Shown here in pieces: positions 2,133 through 15,346 of a stretch of 56,118 nt of DNA. Numbering within the stretch: position 1 is the stretch's first letter; each line of letters opens with the position of its first letter. Where the stretch lies: assembly GCA_017516305.1 (NCBI GenBank), contig JAFXDB010000162.1, positions 1 to 56,118 of the forward strand. Direction: 5' to 3'. Made by a program: the position numbers and the translations under genes. The notes beneath the pieces are model-generated. The model did not search any database, had not been told where the DNA came from, and saw only the letters and a program-made list of their open reading frames with translations. Source of the DNA: Clostridia bacterium. Its GTDB lineage: Bacteria > Bacillota > Clostridia > Christensenellales > Aristaeellaceae.

Positions 2133-2726
2133 TCACTCCTGTTCTTTGTGCCATGGATGGCCTTCGGGGTATCTCGCGGTCAATGCAGCCTGAAGCCACG
2201 CCCGCTGGCTGTCGTTCAGCAGAGGATACACAGCTGCGAAATCTGCCTGTGCGGATTCCGTTTGGGGCTGCGCCGCCTTGTACAGCAGCGCAACCTCCGG
2301 CGCCAGAATGGGCAGCCTCGCCTGCGTGCGGCAGACAGGCTGCATGTCCGGGCTGAACAGCAGGTCGATGAAGTTCAGCGCAGACATGCCGGGCGTAAAC
2401 CGGTGGTAGAGCAGCCCCTCCTCCTCGCAGGGGAAGAACTGCACCGGCGCATCGTCACCCCATGTGGCCATGAGATTGCGGCCCTCTTCACTGTCCTCCG
2501 GGGCGAGGATCGGCTTCACCTTCCCCATGCCCCGGTATTCGTGGATGCGCCAGCCTCTGTTCAGCAGATAGCTGATCACCGCCGCACGGGCCATTTCCGG
2601 CAGGCACACATCCAGATCCCCATGGGGCCGGATGGGCTTTCCGGCAAAAAGCTCCAGGGCATATCCACCGCAGACGGCCCACGGGAAGTCCGCTTCTGCC
2701 AACAGGTCACGCAGCTGCGCCAGCAT
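2133..2726 (-). CDS. nucleotidyltransferase-fold protein (ANT(2'')/Lnu-like family)
   Basis: Start moved to MLAQLRDLL (ATG 2724-2726), 2 nt after the upstream stop (TAA 2729-2731). Pol-beta NTase motif CGGYALELFAGKPIRPHGDLDV. Confidence 0.6.
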   Translation of the reverse strand: MLAQLRDLLAEADFPWAVCGGYALELFAGKPIRPHGDLDVCLPEMARAAVISYLLNRGWRIHEYRGMGKVKPILAPEDSEEGRNLMATWGDDAPVQFFPCEEEGLLYHRFTPGMSALNFIDLLFSPDMQPVCRTQARLPILAPEVALLYKAAQPQTESAQADFAAVYPLLNDSQRAWLQAALTARYPEGHPWHKEQE

Positions 2727-11995: not shown

Positions 11996-12032
11996 GGCTT
12001 CCGCAGCCTATATATCTGCAGAAGCCCTTTTT
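11996..12032 (+). terminator. intrinsic terminator
   Basis: GGCTTCCGCAG / CTGCAGAAGCC stem (one mismatch) followed by CTTTTT. Confidence 0.65.
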
Positions 12033-12064
12033 CACACCTTCATCAGCACAAAGGAGGAGCCCCC

Positions 12065-12841
12065 ATGAAAACCACCCCCGTCGCCTCTGCATCCCAGCTG
12101 GGCAGCCGCGCCTGGAAGGCCGCCCTCGCCACCTGGCCCACCCTGCTGGCCATCCTCTTTGTCATCTATGCGCTGAACGAGGCGCAGTATCACCTCATGC
12201 CGCTGCTGGCGTTCGTCCTGAGCCTCGTGGCGATATTTTTCCATATGGGTCGCACCCGCGGCGCGCTGACCTATCTGCGCGGGGGCGAGATCACCTTCAG
12301 CCACATCGGCAGCATGTTCCCATACTGGAAGCAGGTCATCTGCTACACCCTCTGGGAAGGGCTGTTCGTTTTCCTGTGGATGCTGCCGGGACTGTTCCTG
12401 TTGGGCATGGGCTTCCTGATGATCTACTCCGCCACCGGCGACGCCACCATCACCATGTCCGTCGCAGCCGCCTCCGGCACCGCGATTGCGGGCATCGTCA
12501 TTCTGACGATCGGCCTGGTGCTGCTGCTCGTGCTGCTCTTCCGCACGTCGCTCAACTACCTGCTGGCTGGCTGCTGCATCATTGACGATCCCCACATGGG
12601 CGGCCTCGCCGCGCTGGAAAAGTCCAAGCAGCTGATGCGCGGCCACCGCTGGCGCTATGTGTGCATGAGCTTCCCGTTCGTGCTGATGTTCATTGTTGTC
12701 GCGTCCATTCAGGTCTCCTTTGCCCAGGAGATGATCTCCTCCGCCGGTCACGCGCTGTTCTCCCTCCTGAACATCATCCCGCAGCTCCTCAGCACTTACC
12801 TCATCCCCGTGCTGTACCAGGAGCTGAACGACCGGGCGTGA
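12065..12841 (+). CDS. DUF975-like integral membrane protein
   Basis: AAAGGAGGAG SD. 258-aa multi-pass membrane protein with DUF975-like layout (N-terminal SQLGSRAWKAAL..., central KSKQLMRGHRW). Confidence 0.5.
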   Translation: MKTTPVASASQLGSRAWKAALATWPTLLAILFVIYALNEAQYHLMPLLAFVLSLVAIFFHMGRTRGALTYLRGGEITFSHIGSMFPYWKQVICYTLWEGLFVFLWMLPGLFLLGMGFLMIYSATGDATITMSVAAASGTAIAGIVILTIGLVLLLVLLFRTSLNYLLAGCCIIDDPHMGGLAALEKSKQLMRGHRWRYVCMSFPFVLMFIVVASIQVSFAQEMISSAGHALFSLLNIIPQLLSTYLIPVLYQELNDRA

Positions 12842-12870
12842 TCGGTACACGAAAAGTACATTCCGCCCCC

Positions 12871-12900
12871 TTGACATTCCTGTATACAGGATACTATAAT
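12871..12900 (+). promoter_or_regulatory. sigma-A promoter with palindromic operator in the spacer
   Basis: TTGACA 12871-12876, 18-nt spacer, TATAAT 12895-12900. Perfect 12-bp palindrome CCTGTATACAGG at 12879-12890. Confidence 0.65.
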
Positions 12901-12925
12901 GCCAACCATAAGGAGGTGCTGCAGG

Positions 12926-13000
12926 ATGCTGCGTTCCTATTTCTTCGCGTTTACGTTCCCGGCTGCTTATTTTGCAACCGGGCCAGTTGACGTACCGTGA
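12926..13000 (+). CDS. 24-codon Phe/Tyr-rich leader peptide (MLRSYFFAFTFPAAYFATGPVDVP)
   Basis: AGGAGG 12911-12916, ATG 12926, TGA 12998-13000. 5 Phe and 2 Tyr in 24 codons. Lies between the promoter and a terminator upstream of the DAHP synthase gene. Confidence 0.6.
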   Translation: MLRSYFFAFTFPAAYFATGPVDVP

Positions 13001-13050
13001 AGAAAGCCAACGCCATTCCTGTCCACCGACTGTGAAAAGCAGGAAAAATG

Positions 13051-13092
13051 CGCGGAAGCTCCCTTTGCGGAGCGTCCGCGCTTTTCATTTTC
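13051..13092 (+). terminator. intrinsic terminator (attenuator) in the aroF leader
   Basis: GCGCGGAAGCTCC-ctttgc-GGAGCGTCCGCGC (12 bp plus 1 mismatch) followed by TTTTCATTTT. Confidence 0.7.
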
Positions 13093-13133
13093 CACCTTTT
13101 CTGCTACAATATGTAAGGAGGAAACTCACTAAG

Positions 13134-14147
13134 ATTATCGTTCTGAAGCAAGGCGTCACCCGTCAGGAGATCGACTACGTCACCAACGTCATCGTCAGCA
13201 AGGGCGCCATCACCGTCAACCCCATGATCGGTAACGACCTGACCATCCTGGGCCTGATCGGCGATACAAGCCGTATCGACCCGGCACAGATCGAGTCCCT
13301 GCGCTGCGTGGAGCGCATTATGAAGGTGGCCGAGCCCTTCAAGAAGGCCAACCGCATGTTCCATCCCGGCCCGAGCGAAGTGAAGATCGGCGACACGGTG
13401 GTCGGCGGCACGAAGTTGAGCGTCATGGCCGGCCCCTGCTCGGTGGAAAGTGAAGCGCAAATTGAGGAGGTCGCCCAGGGCGTGAAGGAAGCCGGCGCGA
13501 CCGTGCTGCGCGGCGGCGCATTCAAGCCCCGCACCAGCCCCTACTCCTTCCAGGGCCTTGAGTACCGCGGCCTGGATCTGCTCGTCCACGCCCGCGAGAT
13601 CACGGGCCTGCCCATCGTCACGGAGCTCATGAGCCCCTATGACATCGACAAGTTCGAGCACATGGTGGACTGCATCCAGGTCGGCGCGCGCAACATGCAG
13701 AATTTCGATCTCCTCAAGCGCCTTGGTCAGACCCGCAAGCCGATCCTCTTGAAGCGCGGCCTCTCCGCCACTATCGAGGAGTGGCTCATGTCCGCCGAGT
13801 ATATCATGGCCGGCGGCAACGAAAACGTCATCCTCTGCGAGCGCGGCATCCGCACGTTCGAAACCTACACCCGCAACACCACCGACCTTTCCGCCATCTG
13901 CGCGGTGAAGCGCCTGTCCCATCTGCCGGTCATCGTCGATCCCAGCCACGCCACAGGCAAGTACTGGATGGTGCAGCCCCTGGCCCGCGCGGCCATCGCC
14001 GTGGGCGCGGACGGCCTGATGATCGAGGTGCACAACGACCCCGCCCACGCCCTGTGCGACGGCGCCCAGTCCATCAAGCCCGACACCTTTGCCGAGGTCA
14101 TGAACGACATCAGAAATATCGCCAGGGCCGTGGGACGTGAAATTTAA
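13134..14147 (+). CDS. aroF: 3-deoxy-7-phosphoheptulonate (DAHP) synthase, type I-beta with N-terminal ferredoxin-like regulatory domain
   Basis: IIVLKQGVTRQEIDYV... aligns from memory with the Thermotoga-type enzyme N-terminus MIVVLKPG. Core GPCSVES...LRGGAFKPRTSPYSFQGL...KRG...DPSH. Start uncertain: AGGAGG 13116-13121, but the only in-frame codons nearby are ATT 13134 and ATC 13137. Confidence 0.85.
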   Translation: MIVLKQGVTRQEIDYVTNVIVSKGAITVNPMIGNDLTILGLIGDTSRIDPAQIESLRCVERIMKVAEPFKKANRMFHPGPSEVKIGDTVVGGTKLSVMAGPCSVESEAQIEEVAQGVKEAGATVLRGGAFKPRTSPYSFQGLEYRGLDLLVHAREITGLPIVTELMSPYDIDKFEHMVDCIQVGARNMQNFDLLKRLGQTRKPILLKRGLSATIEEWLMSAEYIMAGGNENVILCERGIRTFETYTRNTTDLSAICAVKRLSHLPVIVDPSHATGKYWMVQPLARAAIAVGADGLMIEVHNDPAHALCDGAQSIKPDTFAEVMNDIRNIARAVGREI

Positions 14148-14257
14148 TTCTAAATCGTAATTCTCAATTCTTAATGAAGAGCGTGTGTGCATTACCTATC
14201 GGACCTCCGCCCCAGTATATCAATTAAGCATTAAGCATTAAGAATTAAGAATTCCAC
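14146..14257. repeat. AT-rich heptamer arrays in inverted orientation flanking a GC-rich core (aroF-aroB spacer)
   Basis: Left arm AATTCTA AATCGTA ATTCTC AATTCTT AATG (14146-14176). Right arm ATTAAGC ATTAAGC ATTAAGA ATTAAGA ATTCC (14223-14257). 14166-14176 is the exact complement of 14236-14246. Confidence 0.8.
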
Positions 14258-14272
14258 TTACAGGAGTCTGTT

Positions 14273-15346
14273 ATGCAGAAAATCATCGTTCCGCTGAAAG
14301 AGCGTTCCTACCCCATCCACATCGGCTCGGGTCTCCTGGACAGCCTCGGCGCATATGTCCGCGAGGCCCTGGGGGAGGTCACCGTGGCCGTGGTCACGGA
14401 TGACAACGTGGCCCCGCTTTATCTCAGCCGGGCTGTCAAATCCTTGCTGGCCGCCGGGCTGAAGGTGAAGTCCATCACCCTGCCCCACGGTGAGGAAACC
14501 AAATGCCTCGCGCGCCTTTCCGACCTGTACGACTTCCTCTGCCACGCCCGCATCACCCGCCGGGACGCGGTGCTCGCCCTGGGCGGCGGCGTCATCGGCG
14601 ATCTGACCGGCCTGGCGGCGGCTACCTTCCTGCGCGGCGTGCATTTTGTGCAGGTGCCCACCACGCTCCTGGCCCAGGTGGATTCCTCTGTGGGCGGCAA
14701 GGTCGCCGTTGACCTGCCCCAGGGAAAAAACCTCGTCGGCGCGTTTTATCAGCCTGACCTGGTGGTCATCGACCCGGACACCCTGAACACGCTGACGGAC
14801 GAATTCTGGCGCGACGGCCTGGGCGAGGTCGTCAAGTACGGCTGCATCGGCGATGCGGAGCTGTTCTCCCTGCTGGAAGCGGCAGCCCCTGGGGGACGCG
14901 CGGCGCTGATGGGGCAAATCGACGTCATCCTGCGCCATTGCGTGCAGGCCAAGGCTGACGTGGTCGCCCAGGACGAGCGGGACACCGGCCTGCGCATGAC
15001 CCTCAACTTCGGCCACACCATCGCCCACGCCGTGGAGACCTGTCAGCACTACACGGGCCTGCGCCACGGCGAGGCCGTTTCCCTGGGCATGCATGTGATG
15101 ACCCGCCTGACGGAGCACAAGGGCCTGACGGAGGCAGGGACTGCCGTCCGCCTGGACGCGCTGCTCACTGCCCTCGGCATGCCCATGCAGCTGCCCCCGA
15201 TCCCGGAGGAAAATCTCATTTCCGCAATGTTTATGGACAAAAAGAGCTTCGGGCAGGGATTGAACGTCATTGTGTTGAATCATATCGGAAAGTGCTTCAT
15301 CCACCAGACCAATGTGGATTTCTTCACCGGCATGACAACGCTTTGA
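14273..15346 (+). CDS. aroB: 3-dehydroquinate synthase
   Basis: CAGGAG SD. GGGVIGDLTGLAAATFLRGVHFVQVPTTLLAQVDSSVGGKVAVDL and NFGHTIAHAVE motifs. Confidence 0.9.
   Translation: MQKIIVPLKERSYPIHIGSGLLDSLGAYVREALGEVTVAVVTDDNVAPLYLSRAVKSLLAAGLKVKSITLPHGEETKCLARLSDLYDFLCHARITRRDAVLALGGGVIGDLTGLAAATFLRGVHFVQVPTTLLAQVDSSVGGKVAVDLPQGKNLVGAFYQPDLVVIDPDTLNTLTDEFWRDGLGEVVKYGCIGDAELFSLLEAAAPGGRAALMGQIDVILRHCVQAKADVVAQDERDTGLRMTLNFGHTIAHAVETCQHYTGLRHGEAVSLGMHVMTRLTEHKGLTEAGTAVRLDALLTALGMPMQLPPIPEENLISAMFMDKKSFGQGLNVIVLNHIGKCFIHQTNVDFFTGMTTL

Follow-up and report, generated by a model that had tools for sequence, protein, structure and literature searches.

Leader peptides rich in Phe and Tyr have been described upstream of aroF, the gene for DAHP synthase, whose reaction opens the shikimate pathway and is its committed step. 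We focus here on how one such leader, located in front of aroF-aroB in contig JAFXDB010000162.1 of a Clostridia bacterium (positions 1 to 56,118; this whole stretch of 56,118 nucleotides is referred to as the window), compares with the systems described so far. First of all, Stav et al. (2019, BMC Microbiol; PMC6429828) reported uORF-13, found from Clostridium novyi and represented by 336 examples in Firmicutes, including Clostridiales, about half of which lie upstream of aroF. It comprises a short F/Y-rich open reading frame (ORF) with F-Y-F in the loop of a hairpin, P1, and then a terminator, and trp-like attenuation was proposed for it; by the account of these authors, C. difficile carries uORF-13. 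The same study described uORF-12, which has a more complex structure with the F/Y-rich peptide immediately before P1 and is mostly found upstream of amino-acid transporters. As far as the supplement of that study (PMC6429828) describes it, the aroR leader upstream of aroF in Corynebacterium glutamicum is also an attenuator, with an F-Y-F peptide. Second, Brewer et al. (2021, RNA Biol; PMC8632094) found uORFC-13-1 upstream of aroF, with 24 representatives from Acholeplasma and environmental DNA only, and proposed attenuation via the speed of Phe incorporation. Third, Fuchs et al. (2021; PMC8237595) recorded a premature termination event in the 5′ untranslated region (UTR) of aroF in C. difficile. 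Finally, His leader-peptide attenuators have been predicted in C. difficile and B. cereus (PMC9413887). The reports of Stav, Brewer and Fuchs mean that this kind of attenuator is already described for Clostridia, by comparative analysis only, and a first-pass annotation of the window, whose author was aware of no aromatic leader peptide before aroF in Clostridia, was thus out of date on this point.

We consider it quite likely that the window element is a classical ribosome-mediated attenuator of aroF-aroB, sensing charged tRNA-Phe and, to a lesser degree, charged tRNA-Tyr. The core of this proposal, an F/Y leader peptide and a terminator acting together on aroF-aroB, had already been put forward in the first-pass annotation and is strongly supported by the comparative evidence given below. 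Judged by sequence comparison, the element is a divergent subfamily of a known kind of attenuator; it is no new mechanism class, related elements having been interpreted along these lines since 2019. Its interest would lie in well-conserved, amino-acid-sensing leader-peptide attenuation in Clostridia, where T-boxes and protein regulators are usually credited with the control of amino-acid biosynthesis.

The aromatic leader and its terminator

An aromatic leader followed by a terminator upstream of aroF is real and conserved. The parts of the element, like aroF and aroB, all lie on the forward strand, beginning with a σ70-type promoter (12871-12900) that matches the consensus at 12 of 12 positions (TTGACA at 12871-12876, an 18-nt spacer and TATAAT at 12895-12900) and from which transcription would start at ~12907, some 7 nt past the −10 box. 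A Shine-Dalgarno (SD) sequence, AGGAGG, is read at 12911-12916, 9 nt 5′ of the ATG at 12926 that opens a leader ORF of 24 codons plus TGA (12926-13000, TGA at 12998-13000), with the predicted product MLRSYFFAFTFPAAYFATGPVDVP. Five Phe and two Tyr codons make up 7 of the 24 (Y5 12938, F6 12941, F7 12944, F9 12950, F11 12956, Y15 12968 and F16 12971). Four of them, F6, F7, F9 and F11, fall in region 1 (12940-12957), the 5′ strand of a long leader stem, which pairs with 12989-13005. The 3′ strand of this stem is provided by region 2 (GACGUACCGUGAAGAAAGC, 12989-13007), which takes in the final two codons before the stop, the stop codon itself and 7 nt past it, and which is also the proposed antiterminator strand. 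At the tip of the stem sits the inner hairpin P1 (12958-12982), in which CCCGG (12958-62) pairs with CCGGG (12978-82) and 12964-66 with 12974-76, and whose loop (12963-12977) codes for A-A-Y-F-A in the window. The complete leader hairpin (12938-13007) folds with −30.4 kcal/mol and links the Phe codons with the stop-codon region; in the first-pass annotation, the CCCGG/CCGGG hairpin had been listed on its own and the longer stem beneath it (12940-12957 / 12989-13005) was missed.

Downstream of the leader ORF, a middle hairpin, UUCCUGU...GCAGGAA (13016-13045, arms 13016-13022 and 13039-13045), folds with −8.5 kcal/mol and may serve as a spacer or as a pause hairpin. It is followed by the stem-loop of an intrinsic terminator (regions 3 and 4; 13050-13081), with a 5′ arm at 13050-13062, a loop at 13063-13068 and a 3′ arm at 13069-13081, whose G+C-rich stem of 12 bp contributes −24.2 kcal/mol and runs into the U tract TTTTCATTTTC (13082-13092, with TTTTCATTTT at 13082-13091). 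Folded as a whole, the segment 12905-13135 has a minimum free energy of −92.5 kcal/mol (z = −6.45), which is equalled by 0 of 200 shuffles. The promoter, SD, leader ORF, terminator and inner and middle hairpins of the first-pass annotation were all found again here, with coordinates within 1 nt.

The conservation of these parts was computed from a scan with the AroF protein, taking one genome per species, which yielded 80 loci. The nearest are metagenome-assembled genomes (MAGs) labelled Clostridia, Christensenellales and Aristaeellaceae, with AroF identities of 77-97%. The group that we call type A comprises sixteen loci, one of them that of the window, from uncultured gut Clostridia of Christensenellales-like affinity, and 15 sequences entered its structural alignment. 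The order of promoter, ORF with SD and start, and structural gene is that of the window in 16/16 loci, each with an ATG-started ORF of 20-33 codons and the core F-x-F-T-(F/I/Y)-P (FTFTGR in L034), and a match to AGGAGG at 5 or 6 of 6 positions precedes the leader ATG in 15/16. Indels within the ORF measure 3 or 6 nt, and the N-terminal M-L-(Y/H) shows third-position variation (CTG/CTT, TAT/TAC and CAT/CAC). The stop codon sits in a conserved CCGU(G/A)AAG within region 2, and the peptides often end in Pro-stop (DVP*, NVP*, IVP*, DIP*). The P1 loop of the relatives codes for a single F or Y (AAFAA, GGFDR), and the conserved aromatic run lies 5′ of P1. A DNA-pattern scan of metagenomes with the core TTYRCGTTTAYGWWCCCGG returned 120 stretches, nearly all of them chance matches in genes, with real leaders only in L085 and L183.

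At the level of RNA structure, the terminated fold is 81.8% paired over the 15 aligned type-A sequences, with 21 pairs changed on both sides, a result that 0 of 500 shuffles reach, and sliding the fold by 1-3 columns as a control leaves at most 47% paired. The helix between regions 1 and 2 is 86% paired over the 15 sequences, with changes on both sides in 7/16 pairs; P1 is 79% paired, keeps its CCCGG/CCGGG core pairs in 14-15 of 15 and shows changes on both sides in 4/8 pairs. The terminator stem is 93.8% paired over the 15 sequences and changed on both sides in 7/12 pairs, its base covarying and its apex, GCU(C)..CUUUGCGG, conserved. Close relatives have a hairpin at the place of the middle hairpin, with C-G/U-A exchanges, in a region that aligns poorly (43-54% of cells paired). 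An alignment of relatives, which the first-pass annotation had suggested as a check, thus finds the F/Y run conserved in the 16 type-A loci and compensatory changes in both the leader stem and the terminator.

The stability of the terminator hairpin also bears on a quite different role, that of a constitutive terminator or insulator for transcripts of the upstream neighbour, a DUF975 gene with its stop at 12841, or of a site of fixed partial termination, the mini-ORF then being a small hydrophobic protein or noise. The hairpin is very stable, and no other terminator was detected between the DUF975 stop and the leader promoter, as such a role would have it. On the other hand, the hairpin stands ~180 nt downstream of a perfect promoter, and leader and terminator stay with aroF while the upstream neighbour varies in identity and orientation, as judged by a longest-ORF analysis that is crude in this high-GC DNA with its shadow ORFs. 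Furthermore, the terminator apex and the stop-codon region are both conserved and complementary to each other, and we give a constitutive or insulating role hardly any credence.

The promoter itself is conserved along with the leader, the TTGACA...TATAAT pair being present at the matching position in all 15 related loci. Its −35/−10 spacer in the window contains the palindrome TGTATACA (12881-12888), which occurs a single time in 56 kb (0.07 expected) and is also found in the promoters of three relatives (L001, L002 and L017). This palindrome could serve as an operator, with a DNA-binding repressor then controlling the promoter in addition to attenuation.

Aromatic leaders are not limited to type A. 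ORFs with SD and ATG and at least 5 aromatics per 12 residues are present on the sense strand of 44/79 aroF loci, on the reverse complement of 0/79 and in 1.3% of dinucleotide shuffles, a comparison that excludes chance, and a hairpin with a U run precedes aroF in 55/55 leader-bearing loci. A larger group, type B, has longer peptides (..KFYSFFYFxFWGFYFSAGYxFCKK..) and is found in Clostridium, Terrisporobacter, Caproiciproducens and Negativicutes, plus one Acholeplasmataceae MAG. In its aromatic columns, the most frequent exchange is between F and Y (F to Y 32, Y to F 15), accompanied by synonymous TAT/TAC splits; its P1, CUGG.GCU...AGC.CUGG, carries F-Y-F in the loop, and its terminator combines a covarying base with an invariant CUCAUU apex. 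Type-A peptides contain 18% Phe, 5% Tyr and 0.5% Trp versus 16%, 11% and 2.4% in type B, which suggests that the window element is chiefly a Phe sensor. Further aromatic-rich mini-ORFs with a terminator, unrelated in sequence, are found 100-300 nt 5′ of aroF (L054, L059, L077; L074; L069; L030, L032; L040), among them MNRSFANKFYSLYFYYF.. in Eubacteriales MAGs, MVGKVVKKYFFYFSNFKSLNYYGFEFFFI in a Fusobacteriaceae MAG and MNEWRLRQNQFGFINF.. in Gracilibacteraceae. Their sequences suggest repeated invention or rapid divergence.

Comparison with known families

The T-box is an alternative at this position, and it shares with the window element the aroF context, the matching position, a terminator/antiterminator output and tRNA charging as the class of signal; it differs in sensing uncharged tRNA by direct RNA-RNA contact, with no ORF. 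T-boxes with 97-125 bits lie directly 5′ of orthologous aroF in seven loci, at ~2650-2960 in each (L055, L057, L063, L064, L067, L070 and L073; Erysipelotrichaceae, Massilimicrobiota, Butyricicoccus and Agathobaculum), all seven without a leader peptide. Their occurrence at the matching position in other lineages marks this position as a site of amino-acid-responsive control, and an orthologous aroF that switches between a T-box and several unrelated aromatic leaders offers a useful system for studying the turnover of regulatory mechanisms. With these seven loci as positive controls, the T-box model RF00230 (gathering score 93 bits) matched neither the leader region nor the whole window, and Phe_leader, RF01859 (gathering score 55 bits), found nothing in 12000-14000 at E <= 10 while scoring 132.3 bits on E. 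coli pheL as a control. More generally, Rfam 15 returned no family for 12000-14000 even at E <= 10, Phe_leader and T-box included, so that the region is free of the T-box or other Rfam leader model that the first-pass annotation had named as evidence against itself. Over 40 related loci at gathering scores, no family fell on any aroF leader-peptide element, T-boxes being found in other lineages only. For annotation, this means that there is no Rfam model for any of these aroF leaders.

These searches also bear on the idea of a translation-independent RNA switch, in which the binding of a metabolite or protein would set the choice of terminator and the mini-ORF would be incidental to U-rich RNA. 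Very high nucleotide conservation, synonymous sites included, would suit such a switch, as would the stable fold (z = −6.45), and the spacer palindrome hints at extra protein control. It is opposed by the correctly spaced SD and ATG in 15/16 type-A loci and a frame kept through indels of 3 or 6 nt, and by aromatic ORFs that are specific to the sense strand in 44/79 loci. In addition, the unrelated leaders have only their aromatic codon bias and a terminator in common, and no riboswitch or T-box model matches. We therefore regard a switch of this type as very improbable.

Compared with uORF-13, the window shares the aroF context, the short F/Y-rich ORF, the in-ORF hairpin P1 and the terminator, and the type-B loci fit the published description. 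The differences are, first, that the window has its aromatic run, (Y)F(F/A)FTF, ahead of P1, on the 5′ strand of the extended stem, and not in the P1 loop, which codes for A-A-Y-F-A and lacks the F-Y-F typical of uORF-13, and second, that the peptide consensus is F-T-F-T-F-P as against ..FWGFYFSAGY... As a proxy for the published alignment, we used R2, a trimmed type-B covariance model made from 21 loci in agreement with the uORF-13 description. R2 matches 12 held-out type-B elements with E = 3e-8 to 8e-17, 11 of them directly upstream of aroF and one (L036) ~1.1 kb upstream; at E <= 1 it gives no match to the window or to the core type-A loci. R1, the corresponding type-A model, finds all type-A loci, including four outside its build set, finds a single copy in the window, and matches type B weakly but at the correct place (L031, E = 7e-4; L014, E = 2e-3; L046, E = 0.33). 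Since R2 misses the core of type A and R1 reaches type B only weakly, type A stands as a divergent subfamily, and the correctly placed matches suggest that it is possibly a remote homologue of type B. The held-out match in L036, an Acidaminococcales MAG, scores 82 bits (1693-1859, 1.1 kb 5′ of aroF), and the leader there presumably stands before a different gene, in one operon with aroF.

Among the other described elements, uORF-12 was compared by its description only: the window agrees with it in having an F run directly before P1 and differs in its gene context, which is aroF and not a transporter. With uORFC-13-1 the window has in common the aroF context, −35 and −10 boxes, ribosome-binding site and start, a Phe-coding U run, an adjacent terminator and an extra paired element. 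The sequence-level proxy for that family, the Acholeplasmataceae locus L046, is matched by R1 at the right place, although only with E = 0.33, and has the tail-to-terminator complementarity of the window type (CGUGAA...AGAG : CUCUUUU(A/G)CG). The pheL-pheA system of E. coli (RF01859) likewise combines a Phe-rich leader peptide with 1:2, 2:3 and 3:4 pairings and an intrinsic terminator. The window has FAFTFP where pheL has FFFTFP-stop, the pheL peptide having been given correctly in the first-pass annotation. However, pheL controls pheA and not DAHP synthase, belongs to Gammaproteobacteria and scores 10 bits with R1, and the local resemblance is best read as convergence. The aroR leader of C. 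glutamicum is another aromatic leader-peptide attenuator before a DAHP synthase gene in a Gram-positive organism; it is actinobacterial, and its peptide and RNA structure are distinct as far as Stav et al. describe them (PMC6429828).

These comparisons lead to a more specific but tentative proposal, to which we assign somewhat less than even chances: the leader of the window and ~18 relatives would constitute a separate, uncatalogued and mainly Phe-sensing family outside the published uORF-12, uORF-13 and uORFC-13-1 alignments, which has converged on the F-x-F-T-F-P of pheL and places its antiterminator strand around its own stop codon. If so, the terminating ribosome would directly mask the antiterminator strand. 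Together with the Clostridium-type leaders, such a family would make leader-peptide attenuation and ribosome-polymerase timing mainstream for the entry into the shikimate pathway across Clostridia, in contrast to the picture of T-boxes and TRAP derived from Bacillus.

Proposed antiterminator and mechanism

In the mechanism that we propose, a ribosome would load onto the leader ORF after transcription has started ~7 nt past the −10 box. When Phe or Tyr is scarce, it would stall on the aromatic codons of 12938-12958 (region 1) or on Y15/F16 in the P1 loop, thereby keeping region 1 off region 2 (12989-13007). Region 2, once free, would capture the apical half and loop of the emerging terminator (13058-13070 onward), and the polymerase would read into aroF. 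When Phe and Tyr are plentiful, on the other hand, the ribosome would reach the Pro-UGA end and cover region 2 (~12983-13013); with region 2 masked, the terminator (13050-13081) would form and transcription would end near 13090, within the U tract. If the leader ORF is not translated, region 2 would be sequestered in the 1:2 stem (−30 kcal/mol), and again the terminator would form. That the leader ORF is translated, that the ribosome stalls, that the 2:3 pairing operates the switch and that ribosome and polymerase are suitably timed are all steps that we infer.

The likely antiterminator, according to the folding models, is thus the stop-codon region (12989-13007) paired with the conserved apex of the terminator. 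In its candidate core, CCGUGAAG..AGC (12995-13007) pairs with GCU..CUUUGCGG (13058-13070), and in the full 2:3 fold, GACGU.ACCGUGAAG..AGC (12989-13007) pairs with GCU..CUUUGCGG.AGCGUC (13058-13076), engaging both the apex and the 3′ arm of the terminator. The antiterminated fold also lengthens the middle hairpin by pairing CGCCAU (13011-16) with AUG.GCG (13048-54). We modelled the ribosome by masking it and folding only the window RNA downstream of it. As long as the A site is 5′ of the Phe codons, both the 1:2 stem and the terminator are formed (P = 0.99). Once it is placed on F6, F7 or F16, the 2:3 pairing is the minimum-energy fold and the terminator probability falls to 0.2-0.5; with the A site between codon 18 and the stop, it is back at 0.99. 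In transcripts ending before the 3′ arm of the terminator, ~11 pairs of 2:3 form, and only a ribosome standing over the final 3-4 codons or the stop codon abolishes them.

The complementarity of region 2 and the terminator apex is conserved. Over type A, the two parts of the 2:3 helix reach 76.7% and 88.9% of paired cells in register versus 32-46% when slid, and the duplex of region 2 with the terminator reaches −13.6 to −19.8 kcal/mol in 15/15 type-A sequences. The A+T-rich type B has an analogue, in which AAUGAGU at the end of the ORF faces ACUCAUU at the terminator apex; 87.7% of this pairing is kept over 29 sequences, and 15/31 loci do better than shuffles at z < −2, type B being the only type in which the duplex energy is significant by this measure. 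A terminator with a conserved apex on a covarying base suggests that the apex segment has a second function, being used in both structures.

Another antiterminator had been put forward in the first-pass annotation, which noted that CTTCGCG (12943-12949), in the leader, can pair with the 5′ arm of the terminator. This pairing does exist (7 bp, −9.9 kcal/mol), but as an antiterminator it is weak and is found in the four closest relatives only, the others reading TTTACG; moreover, a ribosome stalled on the Phe codons would cover CTTCGCG, and region 2 is preferred.

Several results weigh against the attenuator as proposed, or against the 2:3 pairing as its switch. First of all, in the G+C-rich type A the energy of the 2:3 duplex is no better than that obtained with shuffled region 2 (mean z = −0.4), and covariation in the 2:3 helix is weak, as both strands are simply conserved. 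Second, once the full terminator is present, equilibrium folding keeps it folded at every ribosome position in most homologs, and the switch would thus have to be kinetic, like those of the classical attenuators. In the window, equilibrium folding of the full leader with the ribosome masked gives a dip in terminator formation at some positions only, dependent on pairings of the 5′ UTR; folding only the RNA downstream of the ribosome works for the window but fails for most homologs, and equilibrium modelling therefore cannot settle the switch. Third, in the folding of truncated transcripts 2:3 also wins when region 1 is free, so that termination in the absence of translation rests on the co-transcriptional order of events and not on energy. 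Fourth, the synonymous sites of the core (UUU ACG UUU ACG UUC CCG G) are almost invariant in type A, which speaks to a strong constraint at the RNA level and makes peptide conservation alone uninformative. Finally, transcription and translation are reportedly uncoupled in Bacillus subtilis, a finding said to be that of Johnson et al. in Nature in 2020, and such uncoupling would make attenuation harder in Firmicutes unless the polymerase pauses.

The conserved peptide core also has to be weighed as a signal in its own right. Regulation could depend on translation and yet involve no tRNA sensing if the nascent F-T-F-T-F-P ... V-P-stop were an arrest peptide, which would respond in the manner of TnaC to a free aromatic amino acid, or else to general translation capacity, the dwell time at the Pro-UGA end then setting terminator formation. 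Type A conserves both the peptide core and its common Pro-stop ending, E. coli pheL likewise terminates in FTFP-stop, and a ribosome parked at the stop lies over the strand proposed as antiterminator. However, where residues are conserved, the underlying nucleotides are engaged in the 1:2 stem or with the terminator apex, and their conservation is thus explained by the constraint on the RNA. The other aroF leader peptides, on the other hand, are very different and alike in aromatic richness only, and the exchange of F and Y is tolerated, both of which fit the sensing of codons better than a specific interaction of the peptide with the tunnel. We thus hold an arrest peptide to be unlikely and retain the sensing of charged tRNA-Phe as the preferred reading.

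The aroF-aroB unit and its surroundings

The regulated unit begins with aroF (13131-14147), preceded by an AGGAGG SD at 13116-13121 that is conserved in relatives. Its product belongs to the type I-beta DAHP synthases and has a ferredoxin-like regulatory domain at its N-terminus (NCBIfam PRK08673, 490.7 bits; Pfam matches DAHP_synth_1 and DAHP_snth_FXD), and the closest solved structure is that of the Thermotoga maritima enzyme (1RZM/3PG9, E = 9e-97). As AroF carries this ferredoxin-like feedback domain, flux would be controlled at two levels. The second gene is aroB (14273-15346), coding for 3-dehydroquinate synthase (TIGR01357, 365 bits).

The start of aroF is anomalous. The window reads ACT AAG ATT ATC GTT (13128-13139) where every relative reads ..C ATG AT(T/C/A).. 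at equal spacing from the SD, and there is no in-frame ATG, GTG or TTG between the terminator and the aroF start point. Either ATT at 13134 is used, or translation is poor, or the assembly is in error. Upstream, the frame of aroF is open as far as TTG 12972, and the mechanical list carries it as an ORF of 391 aa. It passes through the last part of the leader ORF, through the middle hairpin and through the terminator, and a gene caller could therefore mis-extend aroF over the attenuator (12972-14147).

Just 5′ of the aroF SD and overlapping the U tract of the terminator, a promoter-like TTTTCA-17(TG)-TACAAT is seen at 13082-13110, the TACAAT of which is conserved in L001 and L002, not in more distant relatives. 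Going by its sequence, this site could provide basal aroF transcription independent of the attenuator. On the other side of the element, the neighbour differs between relatives; in L009, the ORF 5′ of the leader (~2186-2692, minus strand, divergent from the aroF leader) starts with MNITLIGMPGSGKSTVGQALAKRLG.. and looks like a shikimate kinase. At gathering scores, Rfam families were absent from both strands of the whole window (1-56118), be it tRNA, rRNA, riboswitch or T-box. The spacer between aroF and aroB (14148-14272) is unusually A+T-rich, with a GC content of ~0.40 versus ~0.64 around it, and contains an inverted repeat (14159-14176 / 14236-14253) and four tandem ATTAAG(C/A) units, its fold being only marginally better than those of shuffles (z = −1.68).

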